Origin: an uncultured archaeon
Lineage (GTDB): Archaea; Thermoproteota; Bathyarchaeia; 40CM-2-53-6; CALIRQ01
Length of the DNA stretch: 64,000 nucleotides
Direction of reading: 5' to 3'
Assembly (NCBI GenBank): GCA_938042195.1
Contig: CALIRQ010000006.1
Span: forward strand, 46,868 to 110,867
A program made the translations under genes and the position numbers. The notes under the pieces are model-generated. The model was given only the letters and a program-made list of their open reading frames with translations. It searched no databases and was not told the DNA's origin. Below, in pieces: positions 8,801-40,232 of the stretch (positions are counted from its first letter, which is position 1; each line of letters starts with the position of its first letter).

Positions 8801-9692
8801 TGTGCCTAGCTGGCGGTATCCCGGAAACCTCGTTATCAAAGAAGGTCGTCACGTGATATTGTAGGAGTTCGTGGAGTTCCTCGATTATGTTCACTGGGAC
8901 TCCTGAGTCTATGGCTTCCTTCAACTTCTGATTGATCCTGATTATATCCACCAGCTTGTGGGTCAAGTCGTCCTCGGAGCGTATTCCGGATTCGAGAGTT
9001 ATCGAGGGCCTCACGCTAACCGGTGGGACGGGCAGTACTTGGAGTATCGCCCATTCCGGCCTAGCCGTTTCCGGGTTTATGCCTATGAGCCTTAGATCCT
9101 CATCGGGGATCCTTTCCAACCTCTCCCTTATCAAGCCCGGCCTTAATTTAACGGCCCCCTCATCGACTATTTCATAAAATGATGTGGGCTTCTCATGCTC
9201 TATTGGATATTGCTTAGAGCCGCAGTAGGGACAATTTGAGTTCTTCTTCGCCTCCTTCATTATCGATTCATAAAGCGAATCGGGGACCGCGTTGAGCAGA
9301 TTCCTTTCCTCCTCCATTCTCCTCCGATATTCCTCCACCCTCTCGCTTGGGAGGCGTATCCTCCCGCAATCCCTGCAGGTGATCGTAAGAAGCTTGTGGA
9401 TTAGCTTGACGAAGGATATATGCACTACCGGCTCGGCCAGCTCTATATGCCCGAAGTGCCCCGGGCATAGGGCGGCCGTGTTCCCACAGGTTTTGCATTT
9501 TTGCCTGGGCTCCAAGGTCCCAAGCCTTCCGTCCATTAGGCCGGAGGGTATCGGGACGCCATCCTCGTCGTAGGTGTCTGGGGTCGTTATCTCCGCCACG
9601 GACATCTTGCGTATCTCGCTTGGGGATAGCAAGGAGAAGAGAACCCTGTTGATCCGCTTATATGCCTCTTCGCTCAATTCCATCTCGATCAC
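5871..9692 (-). CDS. rpoA: DNA-directed RNA polymerase largest subunit, fused A'+A'' (1273 aa)
   Basis: GHFGHIEL, catalytic YNADFDGDEMN, TAVRTQQSGYMQRRL, continuing in frame into the A'' motifs AQSIGEPGTQMTL and ENVIVGQ. Confidence 0.97.
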   Translation of the reverse strand: MIEMELSEEAYKRINRVLFSLLSPSEIRKMSVAEITTPDTYDEDGVPIPSGLMDGRLGTLEPRQKCKTCGNTAALCPGHFGHIELAEPVVHISFVKLIHKLLTITCRDCGRIRLPSERVEEYRRRMEEERNLLNAVPDSLYESIMKEAKKNSNCPYCGSKQYPIEHEKPTSFYEIVDEGAVKLRPGLIRERLERIPDEDLRLIGINPETARPEWAILQVLPVPPVSVRPSITLESGIRSEDDLTHKLVDIIRINQKLKEAIDSGVPVNIIEELHELLQYHVTTFFDNEVSGIPPARHRSGRALKTIAQRLKGKEGRFRGNLSGKRVDFSARTVISPDPNLEIDMVGVPVEIASKLTVPERITEWNIEYARKLVENGPEKYPGALYIVRSDGRRIRLEFVSDRKELAEAIQPGFILERHLRDGDIVLFNRQPSLHRMSIMAHRVKVLPYKTFRLNPCVCPPYNADFDGDEMNLHVPQSEEAITEADLLARVRDQILSPRYGGPIIGAKTDLITAAYLLTKEGTYLTKEEVGILLAAANYEGELPPPKDGKNRLWSGKQIFSLFLPKGLYFSTKSNLCSIYKCEKCLEEKCEYDAFVVVKDGKLIKGVIDKNSIGAEKSGTLFHRIVKDYGTDVAARFLNSISKLLDRFLTLKGFTYSIDELDLPNQVRAKIAKVIEKAERNVSSLIEAYRSGTLERLPGQSLKETLEIHIMNELSKARDQAGECAEVYFGMENSGIVMTRTGARGSMLNIGQMTACLGQQSIRGKRILRGYRDRTLSFFEWGDAGAAARGFIYSSYRDGLNPIEFFFHAMGGREGLVDTAVRTQQSGYMQRRLVNALEHIRVEYDNTVRDPNGNIIQFKYGEDGTDTSKSDRGKSVNVDAVIEKVKLAMGKGRKATKEYVIKRLSQYKSRLTPKLADELRSKILGAKLTKEAVDEVVEEVVRKYESSLIEPGEASGMVSAQSIGEPGTQMTLRTFHFAGVREQNVTLGLPRLIEIVDARKTPSTPTMTVYLDKEHRSSKEKAERVASRITHTTLGDIASSIESDLTEMKVIVRLDPDAMRKRGVAMSELQKSIRLGLCDVKFHGLNIDITARNMELPQFRKLQSRIEALHVKGIPTVKRALVVEENGEWVLKTEGSGLAIALRTPGVDPTRTISNDIHEVAAVLGIEAARNVIIKEAMSVLEEQGLDVDIRHVMLVADVMTASGRVLQVGRHGVTGEKASPLAKAAFEITVPTIADAALRGDEDFLKGVAENVIVGQQIPMGTGLIDLYMFTSS

Positions 9693-12600
9693 GCTCTCTC
9701 CTCCAACCTCAGCCTCGGTGCGATCCCGAGCGCCAGCAACTCCTGCATAAGGAGCTTGAAGGCATAAGAAACGCTAACTGGCGATATTATCGCCCTCTCA
9801 CCGCATATCCTGCAAACATATCTATTCTGCTTTGCATCGTAATAGGCCAATAACCCACAGTTTTCGCAAACGTATATGGTAGCCTTATCGGATTCCTCCA
9901 GCAACCTATCCTTCAAGAGGGCCGAAGCCCCATATGCTATTAGGCAGTCCCTTTCCATTTCGCCAAACCTCAGGCCGCCGCCCCTAGCTCTGCCCTCGGT
10001 AGGCTGTCTAGTCAGCATCTGGACTTGGCCCCTGGCTCTTGCATGCATTTTATCGGACACCATGTGGTGGAGTTTTTGGTAATACGTGATCCCAATGAAA
10101 ACGTCCGCCATGAGCTTTTCCCCGGTGATGCCATTATACATGACCTCCCTGCCGCTGTATTGGAAGCCCATCTTCAGCAAGCCCTCCTTCAGCGAATCCA
10201 GCCCTCCGTTATCGAATGCCGTCCCGTCGATTTGCCTTCCCAAGATCGCCGCGAGCTTTCCAGCGATGTTCTCCGCGAATTGACCTATCGTCATCCTAGA
10301 GGGGATCGCGTGTGGGTTGATTATCAGATCGGGGACGATGCCATCCTCTGTGAACGGCATATCCTCCTGGGGGATCAGCAAACCTATGACCCCCTTCTGC
10401 CCATGCCTTGATGCGAATTTATCGCCGAGCTCCGGCATCCTATTGCTCCTGACCTTAACCTTGAACATCTTCCCCCCCTCCATCGACTCCGTTACGAAGA
10501 CGCTATCGATGACCCCTTCCTCGGATGGTCTCATCGTTATAGATGAATCCCTTCTAGCGGGTCCTCTCGCTTCGAATTCTCTATATTCCTCCAAGAACCT
10601 CGGGGGACTGGTCCTCCCTATTAGGACGGTATTCCCGGAAACGTCGGATTCGACGGAGATCGCGCCGTCTTCCTCGAGGAGCCTATAGTATTTTTCCCCG
10701 CGATAGCCCCTAACCCCCGGCTCTGGTATCTCGAACTTATCCTTCAATCCACCTAAATAATGCCTACACTCGGCCTCATATACCCTGAAGAAGCTGGATC
10801 GCCCAATTCCCCTATCCACGGAGGATTTGTTCACTATTATAGCATCTTCCATATTATAGCCCTGATAACAGAGCACCGCCACAACGTAGTTCTGTCCAGC
10901 AGGCCTTTTGTCATACCCTATCACCTCCATGGGTTTGGTCTTGACCAAGGGCACCTCGGGGTAGTGGAGCATATGGGCCCGGGAATCCACCCTATTGAAG
11001 AAGTTTATGGCGTATACCCCAAGGGCCTGCTTGGCCATGGCCGATTCGTAAGCATTCCTTGGAGACTGGTTATGCTCGGCATAAGGTATTATCGATGCGG
11101 AAGCGCCGAGTATGAGGTATGGGGCTAGCTCCATATGGGTTGTATTTCCCTTAATGGATCCCTCATCCAGGGCCACGAGGGCGTTTTCCTCCTCGTCGGC
11201 ATCTAGATATTCTATGATGCCATCGTTTACCAAGTCGGACCAATGGGTTTCCTTCGATGATATCCTCTCCCATAACTCAGGGGTCAATTTCGGGATGCCG
11301 CCCTCCACCACTATTAGCGGCCTCCTGATCCTCCCGGCATCGCAGTTTACGTAAACTTCCCCGGGGCCGAGGTTCTTGGGCGGGAAATAGGCTACATTGA
11401 TCTCGTGGCTTATCAATCCCTTCCTCCTCAGCGCCCTGATCTCCCTCGCCAACCCGGGGCCATCATCGACGTAGCCCGCGATGACTCCATCCACTATGAC
11501 CTTTGAGCCATGTAACCTTAGCTCGTCGCTTGCCTCGAGCGGGGGCACTACCCCCATGCTACGAATTCTCTCGATGAATTTGATTGGGTCTGTCCCGATC
11601 GATATGACGGCGTATAGCGCGAGGTTCTTGACCAACCCACAATTGGATCCTTCCGGCGTTTCGCTGGGGCAGAGCCTGCCCCAGTGGGTTGGATGCAAGT
11701 CCCTCGCCTCCAAGTTCGGCTGGCTCCTGCTAAGCGGCGATTGTAGCCTCCTCAGATGGCTGATCGTCGAGAGGAAGTTCGTCCTGTCCAAGAGCTGGGT
11801 TACGCCGACCCTGCCCCTAACCCAGTTGCCCGTCGCTATCGCGTGTTGAATCCTCTCGGTTATTATGCCAGGCCTGACGGCGCTAGATGGGGAGAACTCG
11901 AAGTATCGCCTCAATGCTATGCGCTCAAGCTGGTATTTCATATCCCTGACCAAGTTCCTGAAGGTTACCCTGAAGAGCTCCGATAACAAGGATCCGGCCA
12001 ACCTCAGCCTCTTGTTCGCGTAATGATCCTTGTCATCCGGGTCCCGCCGCCCTAGCTTCAGCTCAATCAGCCTCAGGGCCATGTCCGCCAAGAATATCGC
12101 CTTGCTCACCCTATCCTCCGGATTCCTCCCCAAGTGGGGGAGGAAGTTCTTATCCAAAACCGCCTCGGCCTTTTTGATCCTATATTCCTCCGTTTGTCCT
12201 ATCGCGACCCTATTCCCTATATAGAGCATTGCATCGCGAGCGGTGTTTATCCCTACGGATTTCTCGAAGGTTTGCTCCAGCTCGTTCTGGATCTCCGGAT
12301 CGGGGGAAACCAAGGCGGCTATCTTGGCATCGCTCTCCACCCCCAAGGCTTTCATTATTATTGTGAATGGGATCTCCGAGGGCACGCCCGGCATGGAGAC
12401 GTATATCACCCCATCGCTCTTCATCGTCGCCTCAATCCTCGCCTTGGACCCCACAGTCGTCGAGAAGACCTTGGCCTTGTATATCGGATGGGCACCCAGT
12501 TTTTCTATATCAACCAATGTTCGATTTGGAACGAGGTCCTCTAACGCGACAATTACCCTCTCGGATCCATTTATTATGAAGTAGCCGCCGGGATCCAGTG

Positions 12601-13027
12601 GATCCTCTCCGATCCTCATGAGCTCATCGGGCGATAATTTCGAGAGCGGGCATATCTTGGACTTCAACATCACCGGGAGATCCCCTATGTATACCAGCTC
12701 GGTGCCCATCTCCCGCTCCCCGACCACCGGGGTCATCTCGAGGAAGAGGGGGGCCGAATAGGTCAGGTTCCTAACTCTCGCCTCGCTCGGATAGATCAGC
12801 CTCTCTGAGCCGTCCACCTCAATGATGCGCGGGCTACCTAGCTCTATCTTCCCAAACTTTATTATTATCGGATTCCCTTCGATCTCCAACGGGATTTCCT
12901 TGACCTCATCCACAATCTCCTGCAGGCCCTTGCCCACAAAATCGTCAAAGGATGATATATGCTGCCTCACCAAGCCTTCCTCAACGAAGAACTCCTTCAT
13001 CAGTTCCCAACGCAATTGCCTTTGCAT
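9689..13027 (-). CDS. rpoB: DNA-directed RNA polymerase subunit B (unsplit)
   Basis: GDKFASRHGQKG, GGLRFGEMERDC, C-terminal zinc ribbon CENCG..CRICG. Confidence 0.97.
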   Translation of the reverse strand: MQRQLRWELMKEFFVEEGLVRQHISSFDDFVGKGLQEIVDEVKEIPLEIEGNPIIIKFGKIELGSPRIIEVDGSERLIYPSEARVRNLTYSAPLFLEMTPVVGEREMGTELVYIGDLPVMLKSKICPLSKLSPDELMRIGEDPLDPGGYFIINGSERVIVALEDLVPNRTLVDIEKLGAHPIYKAKVFSTTVGSKARIEATMKSDGVIYVSMPGVPSEIPFTIIMKALGVESDAKIAALVSPDPEIQNELEQTFEKSVGINTARDAMLYIGNRVAIGQTEEYRIKKAEAVLDKNFLPHLGRNPEDRVSKAIFLADMALRLIELKLGRRDPDDKDHYANKRLRLAGSLLSELFRVTFRNLVRDMKYQLERIALRRYFEFSPSSAVRPGIITERIQHAIATGNWVRGRVGVTQLLDRTNFLSTISHLRRLQSPLSRSQPNLEARDLHPTHWGRLCPSETPEGSNCGLVKNLALYAVISIGTDPIKFIERIRSMGVVPPLEASDELRLHGSKVIVDGVIAGYVDDGPGLAREIRALRRKGLISHEINVAYFPPKNLGPGEVYVNCDAGRIRRPLIVVEGGIPKLTPELWERISSKETHWSDLVNDGIIEYLDADEEENALVALDEGSIKGNTTHMELAPYLILGASASIIPYAEHNQSPRNAYESAMAKQALGVYAINFFNRVDSRAHMLHYPEVPLVKTKPMEVIGYDKRPAGQNYVVAVLCYQGYNMEDAIIVNKSSVDRGIGRSSFFRVYEAECRHYLGGLKDKFEIPEPGVRGYRGEKYYRLLEEDGAISVESDVSGNTVLIGRTSPPRFLEEYREFEARGPARRDSSITMRPSEEGVIDSVFVTESMEGGKMFKVKVRSNRMPELGDKFASRHGQKGVIGLLIPQEDMPFTEDGIVPDLIINPHAIPSRMTIGQFAENIAGKLAAILGRQIDGTAFDNGGLDSLKEGLLKMGFQYSGREVMYNGITGEKLMADVFIGITYYQKLHHMVSDKMHARARGQVQMLTRQPTEGRARGGGLRFGEMERDCLIAYGASALLKDRLLEESDKATIYVCENCGLLAYYDAKQNRYVCRICGERAIISPVSVSYAFKLLMQELLALGIAPRLRLEERA

Positions 13028-13038
13028 CCTACTCCCCC

Positions 13039-13296
13039 TCAATAGTCGACGACATATCTGTAAGCGACGCTCTCCCCAGCGGTTTGGCTCTTCCTTATTA
13101 TCTTTATCACATCGCCCTTCTTCGCACCGAGGGCCTTCGCCACCGGATCCGAGGCCCTAATATATGGAAGCTGATAGGGTTTTACGCGGTATTCCTCCAA
13201 GACCTTTCTCTTTTCTTCCTCGCTTAGGAGTATGTGGGTTGGGACCAAGACGTGCTTCAGTATATCGGGCCCCTCACCCTCATCGCCTTTCATCAA
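13039..13296 (-). CDS. rpoH: RNA polymerase subunit H (Rpo5)
   Basis: [32 protein letters not shown]. Confidence 0.96.
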
Positions 13297-13430: not shown

Positions 13431-13564
13431 TGGCGGGCCCGCCGGGAATTGAACCCGGGGCCACCGGGTCTCTCCCCGGGGGTAAAAGCTTCGCCGGCGC
13501 CCCGCGACGCCACCGGTGCTCTACCTGGCTGAGCTACACGGCTCCTTTGGGAGCTTACGGGCCC
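13431..13564 (-). tRNA. tRNA-Lys(UUU) with three introns (9/10, 30/31, 37/38)
   Basis: Removing 13555-13535 (21 nt), 13512-13490 (23 nt) and 13482-13470 (13 nt) leaves a 77-nt cloverleaf: GGGCCCG UA GCUC AGCCAGGUA GAGC A CCGGG CUUUUAA CCCGG UGGCC CCGGG UUCAAUU CCCGG CGGGCCC G CCA. Each junction forms a BHB-like fold. Confidence 0.9.
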
Positions 13565-13656
13565 AGCAGGCCCGCCCGCTACGCAAAGGGGGCAATTTTC
13601 TAATTAATCTTTCCCGAGCCAAGTTTAAATGCCCTAACCGATAAATCAAAACTGGG

Positions 13657-15610: not shown

Positions 15611-15691
15611 GGAAGCTGGGAGGATCGCTAGGGGATTCCGCAATATTTTTTAATCGAGTTGGCGGGCATCATTCTTCGCCCTGGGCGAAGG

Positions 15692-15816
15692 GCCCTGGTA
15701 GTATAGAGGTATTAAAGATACCGTAAAACCCGGCCTAGTATGTGCGGCTGTCGCCCGCACGACGCGGGTTCAAATCCCGCCCAAAAGGGACCATAATCCC
15801 TTGGCGAGGGGCGCCA
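15692..15816 (+). tRNA. tRNA-Asp(GUC) with two introns (15/16 and 68/69)
   Basis: Removing 15707-15728 (22 nt) and 15784-15808 (25 nt) gives a 78-nt cloverleaf: GCCCUGG UA GUAU AGCCCGGCCUA GUAU G UGCGG CUGUCGC CCGCA CGAC GCGGG UUCAAAU CCCGC CCAGGGC G CCA. Confidence 0.9.
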
Positions 15817-15935
15817 AACCCGCGTCGGAGGGAATCCGAATCACGGGCCTCCTCGGCCCCTAGAGCGAGCCCCGAGGGCTTGGAAACGCAAAAATTTTAT
15901 GCTCGATGTCCCCATCCATTACCGGTCCCGCGGAT

Positions 15936-16131
15936 CCCGCGGTAAGATGCCCAAGGCATCCCGCAAGCTCAGCCTGGTAGAGCTTCCGAGCCGGCCGAGG
16001 CAGGCGGCGGAGAGGCTGTAGGCGCGCGCCTTCGTCGGCGTGCGCTGCCCAAGCCTATCAGGCGACAGAAACCGGAGCGTCGCTGGTTCAAATCGGGCCG
16101 AGGGTCCGTGGAAATCCGGCCCGCGGGACCA
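15936..16131 (+). tRNA. tRNA-Tyr(GUA) with four introns (9/10, 30/31, 37/38, 59/60)
   Basis: Removing 15945-15966, 15989-16014, 16022-16070 and 16093-16114 gives a 77-nt cloverleaf: CCCGCGG UA GCUC AGCCUGGUA GAGC U UCCGG CUGUAGA CCGGA GCGUC GCUGG UUCAAAU CCGGC CCGCGGG A CCA, with the archaeal Tyr identity elements C1-G72 and A73. Confidence 0.9.
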
Positions 16132-16139
16132 CCACGGTA

Positions 16140-16147
16140 ATTTTTTT
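16140..16147 (+). terminator. Oligo-T tract after tRNA-Tyr (putative archaeal terminator)
   Basis: Run of seven T about 10 nt downstream of the CCA. Confidence 0.5.
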
Positions 16148-16185
16148 GGCGCATCCCATCCAATACGCAGGACCCGGGGATCGGT

Positions 16186-38437: not shown

Positions 38438-38526
38438 GCCTTCGGGCAAGGCCCATGGGATTATCCCTCAGGCCTCTCCAATCCCGATAATATTAAATAG
38501 GCGGGTTTTCCCTTCCAACGTTCAAG

Positions 38527-38624
38527 GCATCCGGGGGAGCTGGGGGAACCCGGCTGAGAGGGTGGCAGATCCGCCACCGACCCTTGGAACCTGATCCGGG
38601 TAATGCCGGCGAAGGGAGGGATGC
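38527..38624 (+). promoter_or_regulatory. TPP (THI-box) riboswitch
   Basis: P1 GCAUCC/GGAUGC; conserved GCUGAGA, GACCC, GAACCUGAUC and GGGUAAUGCCGGCGAAGGGA; TATA-like ATTAAATA about 30 nt upstream; directly upstream of thiW. Confidence 0.93.
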
Positions 38625-38724
38625 GGTGGATGGGCTATCCGCCGAAGCCCAGCCGAGCGCTGGGGCTCCTTCTCCGATCCGGATCCGTTCCCCCGGGTGC
38701 ATCGAAGCTCGGAGGTGAATGCAT

Positions 38725-40138: not shown

Positions 40139-40232
40139 GGGCCCGTGGCTCAGCCTGGATAGGGTTAAGGGCGTCCAAAGCGGCGGCCTCCTAAGTCGTA
40201 GGTCGTGGGTTCGAATCCCACCGGGCCCGCCA
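40139..40232 (+). tRNA. tRNA-Arg(CCU) with one intron (22/23)
   Basis: Removing 40163-40178 (16 nt; central helix GGAU/GUCC) restores the D-stem GCUC/GAGC; anticodon CCU; CCA encoded. Confidence 0.9.

Follow-up and report, generated by a model that had tools for sequence, protein, structure and literature searches.

Three interrupted tRNA genes lie close together in the window, the 64,000-nucleotide stretch of archaeal DNA that was analysed: a tRNA-Tyr(GUA) gene and a tRNA-Asp(GUC) gene on the forward strand and a tRNA-Lys(UUU) gene on the reverse strand (Table 1). Neither ARAGORN nor Rfam detected tRNA-Tyr when run on the raw window. ARAGORN recovered 0/3 of tRNA-Tyr, tRNA-Lys, and tRNA-Asp from the raw sequence, and the Rfam tRNA model gave partial matches to two, tRNA-Asp being one of these. 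Excision restores a canonical tRNA. When the four insertions were removed from tRNA-Tyr by hand, ARAGORN called a perfect 77-nt tRNA-Tyr(GTA) cloverleaf with an encoded CCA, and the spliced 77-mer of the second gene was called tRNA-Lys(ttt). Spliced forms of the third gene were called tRNA-Asp(gtc). The tRNA-Tyr cloverleaf requires excision of the insertion at position 9/10 (15945-66). The oligo-T run downstream of tRNA-Tyr is likely where its transcript ends.

Table 1. Features of the three interrupted tRNA genes, in coordinates of the window.
Feature	Position	Strand	Remarks
tRNA-Tyr(GUA), four introns, CCA encoded	15936-16131	+	hand-spliced, ARAGORN
BRE/TATA-like promoter of tRNA-Tyr, AAAAATTTTATG	15890-15901	+	aligned homologues
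Leader decoy GGUCCCGCGG, made up of GGU and a 5' acceptor strand copy	15924-15933	+	DNA GGTCCCGCGG
Spacer AU (DNA AT), decoy to true 5' end	15934-15935	+	0-3 nt in homologues
tRNA-Tyr exon 1, nt 1-9, CCCGCGGUA (CCCGCGG-TA)	15936-15944	+	nt 4-7 form the predicted central BHB helix
tRNA-Tyr intron 9/10, A-GAUGCC-CAA-GGCAUC-CCGC-AA	15945-15966 (22 nt)	+	
tRNA-Tyr intron 30/31	15989-16014 (26 nt)	+	
tRNA-Tyr intron 37/38	16022-16070 (49 nt)	+	
tRNA-Tyr intron 59/60	16094-16115 (22 nt)	+	
Remaining tRNA-Tyr exons	15967-15988, 16015-16021, 16071-16093, 16116-16131	+	
tRNA-Tyr 3' acceptor strand plus A73 C74 C75, CCGCGGGACC	16121-16130	+	nt 66-75
Oligo-T run, likely archaeal terminator of the tRNA-Tyr transcript	16142-16148	+	read from sequence
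tRNA-Lys(UUU), CCA encoded	13431-13564	-	introns 9/10 (13535-13555), 30/31 (13490-13512), 37/38 (13470-13482)
tRNA-Lys(UUU) leader decoy GGCGGGCCUG	13567-13576	-	followed by spacer CU (13565-13566)
tRNA-Asp(GUC)	15692-15816	+	D-loop intron of ~22-27 nt (ambiguous boundaries); intron 68/69, which interrupts the 3' acceptor strand, at 15784-15808
Leader copy GCCCUGG of the tRNA-Asp 5' acceptor strand	15678-15684	+	7-nt spacer, 15685-15691

The geometry of each tRNA-Tyr bulge-helix-bulge (BHB) was worked out by hand from the sequence and the predicted fold. On this reading every insertion can be drawn as a BHB in which both 3-nt bulges are cut between their second and third bases, and the introns at 9/10, 30/31, 37/38, and 59/60 resemble known BHB introns in having two 3-nt bulges, a 4-bp helix, and this cleavage position. 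In the 9/10 intron, the central helix joins GCGG (nt 4-7) to CCGC at the intron's 3' end; it lies between the bulges UA|A and AA|G, which sit on opposite strands with symmetric splice sites, and the inner hairpin is GAUGCC/GGCAUC. A sequence-only reading of this DNA had claimed that the central helix needs nt 4-7, and the GCGG:CCGC arrangement with both bulges is indeed kept in 35 homologues. Among these 35 genes, the central helix has CCGC, CCGU, CCGA, or UCGU as its 3' strand, and either AA or AG ends the bulges. The inner helix covaries as the flanking helix of a BHB intron does, with pairs 1-4 standard (Watson-Crick or G.U) in 94-100% of the homologues and two to four Watson-Crick types at each of pairs 2-4. 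Lacking an outer helix, the tRNA-Tyr 9/10 BHB has the relaxed HBh' form. Judged from their sequence, the tRNA-Tyr insertions are ordinary BHB introns in kind and predicted substrates of the splicing endonuclease (EndA), with RtcB as the predicted ligase.

Non-canonical archaeal tRNA introns were reportedly treated by Marck and Grosjean in 2003 and by Sugahara in 2007/2008. They pose a folding problem, in that the BHB required by the endonuclease cannot coexist with the cloverleaf, and where an intron adjoins the acceptor stem, no helix of the tRNA is more stable than the competing one. Such BHB introns are known in Thermoproteales and Thaumarchaeota (reviewed in PMC4090602 and PMC4033280), and position 9/10 is missing from one review's list of positions, which is non-exhaustive and ends in 'etc.' Reviews up to 2021 state a maximum of three introns per tRNA gene, whereas there are four here and five in the related loci L066 and L079.

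The leader of tRNA-Tyr contains a second copy of the 5' acceptor strand, referred to here as the decoy. The stretch 15924-15933 is the exact reverse complement of 16121-16130, which verifies the earlier claim that the leader duplicates the 5' acceptor strand and can form 10 bp with nt 66-75, against 7 bp for the native stem. The decoy helix is uninterrupted, with 8-10 bp and no bulges. The 10-mer is found at two sites only in the 64 kb window, where 0.31 are expected, and by our estimate the odds of a copy landing by chance within ~15 nt upstream of the gene are roughly 1e-5 to 1e-4. The complementarity is confirmed as real and well beyond chance. Just upstream, ATTACC (15918-23) and GGTAAT (16136-41) are reverse complements of each other, so this complementarity, also pointed out earlier, is genuine; its assignment to the same feature does not hold, as L135 and L209, the closest relatives, lack the AUUACC/GGUAAU pairing, and AUUACC precedes the position at which transcription is predicted to begin. 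We rejected it as an extension of the decoy helix, and it is probably a chance match outside the feature. Taken together, the decoy and its spacer look like exon 1 repeated in tandem (CCCGCGGAU compared with CCCGCGGUA; in L074, GGGUCCGUA compared with GGGCCCGUA).

To place the decoy relative to the promoter, 34 tRNA-Tyr homologues were aligned with the decoy as anchor. Information peaks were found at -34 to -28 (T-rich, TATA) and at -40 to -35 (A-rich, BRE-like) relative to the decoy. Information falls to near zero from -27 to -5 and rises again at the GGU (-3 to -1), where the genes show a pyrimidine/G step; position -4 is never A. Intron-less tRNA-Tyr genes have an identical TATA geometry relative to their +1 and a conserved G(-2)U(-1). 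In archaea, the usual distance from the centre of the TATA box to the start is ~26 nt. The equal spacing of the TATA box to the decoy and to the +1 of intron-less genes suggests that the transcript probably starts at the decoy GGU. The predicted start of tRNA-Tyr is the first G of the decoy, 15924 ± 2, which would probably make the decoy the extreme 5' end of the transcript, and we infer that the decoy occupies the position of the ancestral +1. The TATA-like element that had been placed near 15892-15900 is thus borne out as a conserved box whose spacing predicts a start at GGU.

A survey of relatives revealed that the decoy and the 9/10 intron go together. An exon-2 pattern scan of GTDB genomes returned 120 loci, mostly from Nitrososphaeria and Bathyarchaeia, of which three carry a 9/10 intron (L066 and L079, both Bathyarchaeia, and L092), and all three have the leader copy. 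Metagenomes were scanned for a D-arm preceded by anything except U8; neither search pattern demanded a decoy. Public genomes and metagenomes yielded 35 distinct tRNA-Tyr genes with a 9/10 intron (19-32 nt), and the leader motif (G)GUCCCGC(G)(G) was found 0-3 nt before the true 5' end in 35/35, leaving no gene with the intron and without the copy (0/35). At least five Watson-Crick base pairs between the leader and nt 66-72 are available in 34/35 genes with the 9/10 intron versus 2/102 intron-less relatives, where the two matches are just 5 nt long and at chance level. This Watson-Crick-only count replaced a G.U-tolerant one, which was dropped because U/G-rich leaders score 5-6 by chance. For the association of decoy and 9/10 intron, a Fisher test gave p ~1e-28, a value that ignores shared ancestry. 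The same coupling is seen within one clade, in which L066 and L079 have five introns including the one at 9/10 as well as the decoy, and the sister-type loci L118 and L016 share the other four introns and have neither the 9/10 intron nor the decoy. With the tRNA-Lys genes described below, the decoy is coupled to the 9/10 intron in 35/35 tRNA-Tyr and 4/4 tRNA-Lys genes.

The tRNA-Lys gene of the window provides a second family. Its decoy is complementary to 13432-13441 (CGGGCCCGCC, nt 66-75) if one G.U is counted, a TATA-like box lies ~24 nt upstream of it, and its 9/10 intron has an outer BHB helix of 6-7 bp. Homologous tRNA-Lys decoys, with the sequences GGCGGGCC-G, GGCGGGUCUG, and GGCGGGUCCG, are present in L135, L209, and L074. 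The acceptor of tRNA-Lys is GGGCCCG, unlike that of tRNA-Tyr, and a matching decoy is found in 4/4 genes. Because tRNA-Lys combines a different acceptor with its own decoy, the match is no side effect of the CCGCGG palindrome in tRNA-Tyr. This palindrome was ruled out as a sufficient cause, given that both tRNA-Lys (GGGCCCG) and tRNA-Asp (GCCCUGG) have their own matching copies.

The leader copy of tRNA-Asp is exact over 7 nt and lies at the predicted start site, with a TATA-like sequence (TTTTTTAA) ending 24 nt upstream of it. It is kept in L135/L206 and in L209, with spacers of 6, 7, and 17 nt, and is a possible third instance of the decoy. In the 2D model, the leader copy was of no benefit to the BHB of the 68/69 intron (P 0.55 without and 0.03 with the copy at 37 °C), which leaves the idea that it aids this BHB unsupported; a link to the D-loop intron instead is an idea drawn by hand. 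Upstream of the fourth tRNA of the window (40139-40232), no second GGGCCCG was found within 70 nt of the 5' end.

The decoy tracks the acceptor sequence of its own tRNA family. Across the three families, 88% of the decoy/3'-strand positions are paired versus 67.6 ± 2.1% when shuffled (0 of 500), and slid registers give 31-45%. Between families, 7/10 of these pairs are altered on both sides. The covariation rests on two or three tRNA families since all tRNA-Tyr cases share one acceptor sequence. Pairing is maintained through sequence change, as in a functional RNA helix, across two or three independent families, with the caveat that any copy of the 5' strand will match the 3' strand by its nature, whatever its function. 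The six changes found inside decoys within families are all C>U (L181, L205, the tRNA-Lys of the window, L074, and two in L209), and each keeps a G.U with the 3' strand. Other differences are confined to the helix ends, and no disruptive internal change was found. Among relatives, identity is 36-44% in the sequence between TATA and decoy versus 74-100% in the decoy.

To model the effect of the decoy on folding, transcripts with and without the leader were compared. The minimum free energy fold of 15924-16131, which begins with the decoy, has a 10-bp helix between decoy and 3' strand together with GCGG:CCGC (-111.9 kcal/mol), and the decoy helix is also in the centroid. The leader-free 15936-16131 folds into the native acceptor stem and has no BHB helix (-98.5 kcal/mol). 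A longer transcript, 15905-16150, gave the same outcome as the decoy-bearing one. Partition-function folding was carried out for 34 tRNA-Tyr genes with the decoy, leader-free, and with the decoy replaced by poly-A. At 37 °C the median probability of the central BHB helix was 0.87 with the decoy, 0.00 leader-free, and 0.00 with poly-A, and that of the native acceptor was 0.00, 0.995, and 0.996, respectively. At 70 °C the BHB probability was 0.51 with the decoy versus 0.001 without it. In 6/34 genes the modelled BHB probability was low despite the decoy. For tRNA-Lys, the decoy lowers the native acceptor probability in the window gene from 0.996 to 0.0 and makes an outer BHB helix G1-G3:C11-C13 possible; across the family, the native acceptor is abolished in 4/4 genes, and in 2/4 the decoy allows G1-G3 (plus spacer) to form an outer BHB helix with C11-C16. 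In these models the decoy thus acts as a thermodynamic switch. When the 9/10 intron is spliced out of tRNA-Tyr, the 2D model retains the decoy helix (P ~0.98), and removal of the GGU raises the native acceptor to just ~0.6. Since the decoy helix persists after splicing in the model, an additional release step must be assumed.

Our current hypothesis is that the leader decoy occupies the 3' acceptor strand and thereby frees nt 4-7 for building the 9/10 BHB, which we consider probable from the sequence comparisons and the models. The transcript would start at about G15924, and its first ten bases (GGU and the copy of nt 1-7) would act as an intramolecular competitor strand. With 10 bp to nt 66-75 compared to 7 bp for the true 5' strand, the decoy would win the 3' strand and leave nt 1-7 single-stranded. 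Base pairing of nucleotides 4-7 with the 9/10 intron's 3' end could follow, and these 4 bp would be the central helix of a BHB open to cleavage by the splicing endonuclease. Following ligation the decoy would be removed, likely by RNase P and possibly in two cuts, the first at GGU|C and the second at the true +1. In the decoy, GGU|C would mimic the ancestral -1/+1 site, and we infer RNase P or another nuclease as the one that cuts there. After removal of the decoy, the native acceptor stem could form. In tRNA-Lys the 9/10 intron would rely on the same device, with the freed 5' strand forming the outer BHB helix with nt 11-16, and tRNA-Asp may be served by it as well. The view of the leader as an intramolecular chaperone, advanced in the sequence-only reading, is thus supported by the coupling to the 9/10 intron, the tracking of the acceptor sequence, the promoter spacing, and the modelled folding switch; the further suggestion that the decoy delays RNase P until splicing is done is plausible. 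If this scheme is correct, primary transcripts are expected to begin at GGUCCCGCGGAU and to continue into the unspliced 9/10 intron, and spliced intermediates that are still 5'-extended are expected to occur (GGUCCCGCGGAUCCCGCGGUAGCUCAG, or the same from CCCGCGGAU).

The decoy might instead serve timing or quality control, by covering the 3' strand and CCA and so mainly holding off, for as long as the body is unspliced, aminoacylation, attack by 3' exonucleases, or a premature RNase P cut at the true +1, with the BHB forming independently of it. The models are in line with such protection, as the decoy abolishes the native acceptor, pairs A73-C75, and leaves the true -1/+1 junction single-stranded, and tRNA-Asp retains its leader copy though the model gives no benefit to its BHB. 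However, the decoy goes specifically with introns that draw on the 5' acceptor strand for their BHB, L118 and L016 have no decoy though their four other introns would need equal protection, and almost no BHB forms in the models without it. We therefore regard this explanation as unlikely on its own, and it is compatible with, rather than exclusive of, a role in helping splicing.

A second alternative is that the copy is a neutral footprint of the origin of the intron and has no role in processing, having been left by a 9-nt tandem duplication of exon 1 or by a 5' tRNA fragment after integration and deletion of a mobile element. The likeness of decoy plus spacer to exon 1 fits this explanation, as do the location of the copy at the +1 position of intron-less genes and the intron gain with an upstream 5' tRNA fragment reported in Caldiarchaeum (PMC3293823). 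The copy could indeed have arisen as a short duplication or be a remnant as at the Caldiarchaeum tRNA-Thr locus. In Caldiarchaeum subterraneum, as here, a 5' tRNA copy lies upstream of an intron-bearing gene; however, the tRNA-Thr fragment is 1.8 kb away with a recombinase gene in between, and no function was proposed for it (PMC3293823), whereas the decoy is 7-10 nt long, adjacent to the gene, conserved, and ends at the helix boundary with no element nearby. Around tRNA-Tyr we found no integrase or element, the neighbours being RpoB, DUF498, a LeuA-like protein, a 2-hydroxyacid dehydrogenase, and SOD. An att-site direct repeat would span tens of bases beside an integrase-bearing element or its remnant, unlike this copy of 7-10 nt with a spacer of 0-3 nt, housekeeping flanks, and no integrase. 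Furthermore, the copy has been kept in at least 39 diverged genes in which the adjoining leader is randomised, its internal changes are all C>U with pairing preserved, and slippage between two 8-nt repeats should delete it easily, yet 0/35 have lost it. A neutral footprint is thus improbable, and an origin by duplication is compatible with a present function. The conservation of the decoy, the restriction of its changes to C>U, and the lack of any intron-bearing gene without the copy point to selection, whatever the origin.

Two further explanations are very improbable. If the 5' end were misassigned, the upstream copy would be the mature 5' acceptor strand and the downstream copy would lie inside a larger or nested intron. 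The upstream copy does have the ancestral promoter spacing and the GGU context of a normal +1, but U8-A9 follows the downstream copy only, the variable spacer of 0-3 nt and the intron ends AA/AG provide no consistent nt 8-9, a segment of 7-10 nt is too short for a BHB of its own, and the downstream copy gives a perfect cloverleaf in the spliced product. We rejected the upstream copy as the true 5' end because it yields no U8-A9. Lastly, the conserved block starts exactly at the predicted start site, as a DNA-level promoter element serving initiation rather than RNA pairing might, but it is wholly different in tRNA-Tyr, tRNA-Lys, and tRNA-Asp, each matching its own acceptor, its C>U-only changes indicate an RNA-helix constraint, and archaeal promoters are not known to depend on a specific sequence beyond the initiator.

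A decoy that holds the 3' acceptor strand has partial parallels in known systems. Attenuators and riboswitches operate through mutually exclusive helices, and the leaders of bacterial pre-rRNA pair transiently with mature sequence and are later removed. As in attenuators and riboswitches, a competing upstream strand decides between exclusive helices; unlike them, the decoy involves no ligand or ribosome, it acts in another kind of molecule, with another enzyme and for another purpose, and the switch would be resolved by RNA cleavage and not by the kinetics of transcription or translation. As in pre-rRNA leaders, the proposed pairing with mature sequence is transient and is followed by removal. 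Split and permuted tRNAs (PMC3218864, PMC3978253), with examples in Nanoarchaeum equitans, Caldivirga, Thermofilum, and Cyanidioschyzon, are similar in that transcribed sequence from outside the mature tRNA makes base pairs that enable the splicing endonuclease to act. In those genes, the extra sequences pair mutually, form the BHB, and are cut off by the endonuclease. The decoy, in contrast, pairs with mature nt 66-75 in a bulge-free helix, forms no BHB, and would have an indirect effect, pushing the true 5' strand aside; the gene itself is a single uninterrupted transcription unit with its parts in normal order. Its removal would call for an enzyme other than the splicing endonuclease. In the reviews and papers covered, the BHB of known introns is built from the intron and adjacent exon bases only, and a leader that remodels the acceptor stem is not described. 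A leader decoy was likewise undescribed in the literature searched (PMC4090602, PMC4033280, PMC4390854, PMC3218864, PMC7714728, and PMC8450103).

If the hypothesis is correct, a conserved leader strand that takes the 3' end is a simple answer to the folding problem posed by introns beside the acceptor stem. The 5' leader would then carry processing information and be more than a spacer removed by RNase P, and a fixed order of maturation steps would be implied. More tentatively, intron-rich archaea such as Bathyarchaeia and relatives may have a general class of cis-acting pre-tRNA elements in which the leader mimics the acceptor strand. Such elements would allow the splicing of any intron for whose BHB the 5' acceptor strand is needed (9/10 and possibly 15/16), enforce splicing first and 5' trimming later with a stepwise release by RNase P, and be a precondition for introns beside the acceptor stem. 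A promoter-proximal tandem copy of the 5' strand could also be a signature for finding heavily interrupted tRNA genes, which is useful because standard tools missed these genes in raw sequence. A generic search for 7-mers repeated in tandem whose complement lies downstream gave 326 matches versus 166 in shuffled sequence and was swamped by noise; a D-arm-anchored filter then recovered the tRNA-Lys family.

The tRNA-Tyr gene carries four introns of the bulge-helix-bulge type, at positions 9/10, 30/31, 37/38 and 59/60, and two homologues from Bathyarchaeia (L066 and L079) carry five, the additional intron being located at 53/54. The maximum stated for archaeal tRNA genes, in reviews and in the tRNAscan-SE 2.0 paper, is three introns each (PMC4033280, PMC8450103). 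Three of the four positions (9/10, 30/31 and 37/38) are also occupied in tRNA-Lys, and the 9/10 introns of the two genes, 21-22 nt long with a CAA(A) loop, resemble each other in size and shape. This likeness is compatible with the spread of introns from one tRNA gene to another, of the kind proposed for the Thermoproteales, with the difference that here the matching decoy, the duplicate of the 5' acceptor strand in the leader, would have to travel with the intron.

Features of the window discussed in this section
Feature	Position	Strand	Remarks
RNA polymerase subunit B gene	9689-13042	-	unsplit; 1117 aa; all Rpb2 domains
tRNA-Lys, decoy included	13431-13576	-
tRNA-Asp(GUC) with leader	15678-15816	+
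tRNA-Asp leader copy	15678-84	+	GCCCUGG; 7 nt; exact duplicate of own 5' acceptor strand
tRNA-Asp intron 68/69	15784-15808	+	within 3' acceptor strand
tRNA-Tyr, decoy included	15924-16131	+
tRNA-Tyr gene	15936-16131	+
TPP riboswitch (RF00059)	38523-38635	+	71.7 bits; full length
tRNA-Leu(CAA)	40139-40232	+	ARAGORN call; 94 nt

Intron-less tRNA-Tyr genes (L002-L121, mostly Nitrososphaeria) have a strongly conserved G(-2)U(-1) immediately in front of the mature 5' end (88/105 and 90/105 genes, respectively), which is able to pair with C74 and A73. Together with a TATA element at -33 to -25, this implies very short leaders, which at 2-3 nt would lengthen the acceptor helix. An archaeal-type tRNA-Tyr exon pattern was also seen on two contigs (L007, CATQHV010000001.1; L097, JAUZRP010000069.1) whose MAGs are labelled bacterial (Binatia, Desulfonauticus), labels that may reflect mis-binning.

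The leader copy of tRNA-Asp is also kept in L135/L206 and L209, where the spacer that follows it measures 6-17 nt. This tRNA has a second intron in its D-loop, and the D-loop region is able to pair with the 5' strand; no clear role for the copy emerges from predicted folding of tRNA-Asp.

The Rfam match to the tRNA at 40139-40232 covers only nt 9-63. At least one non-canonical intron probably lies inside it, which makes its isotype doubtful, and no copy of its 5' strand, GGGCCCG, occurs within the 70 nt that precede its 5' end.

The tRNA cluster adjoins the RNA polymerase subunit B gene, and its surroundings belong to the core chromosome and not to a mobile element. The TPP riboswitch sits in what is apparently an archaeal genome.
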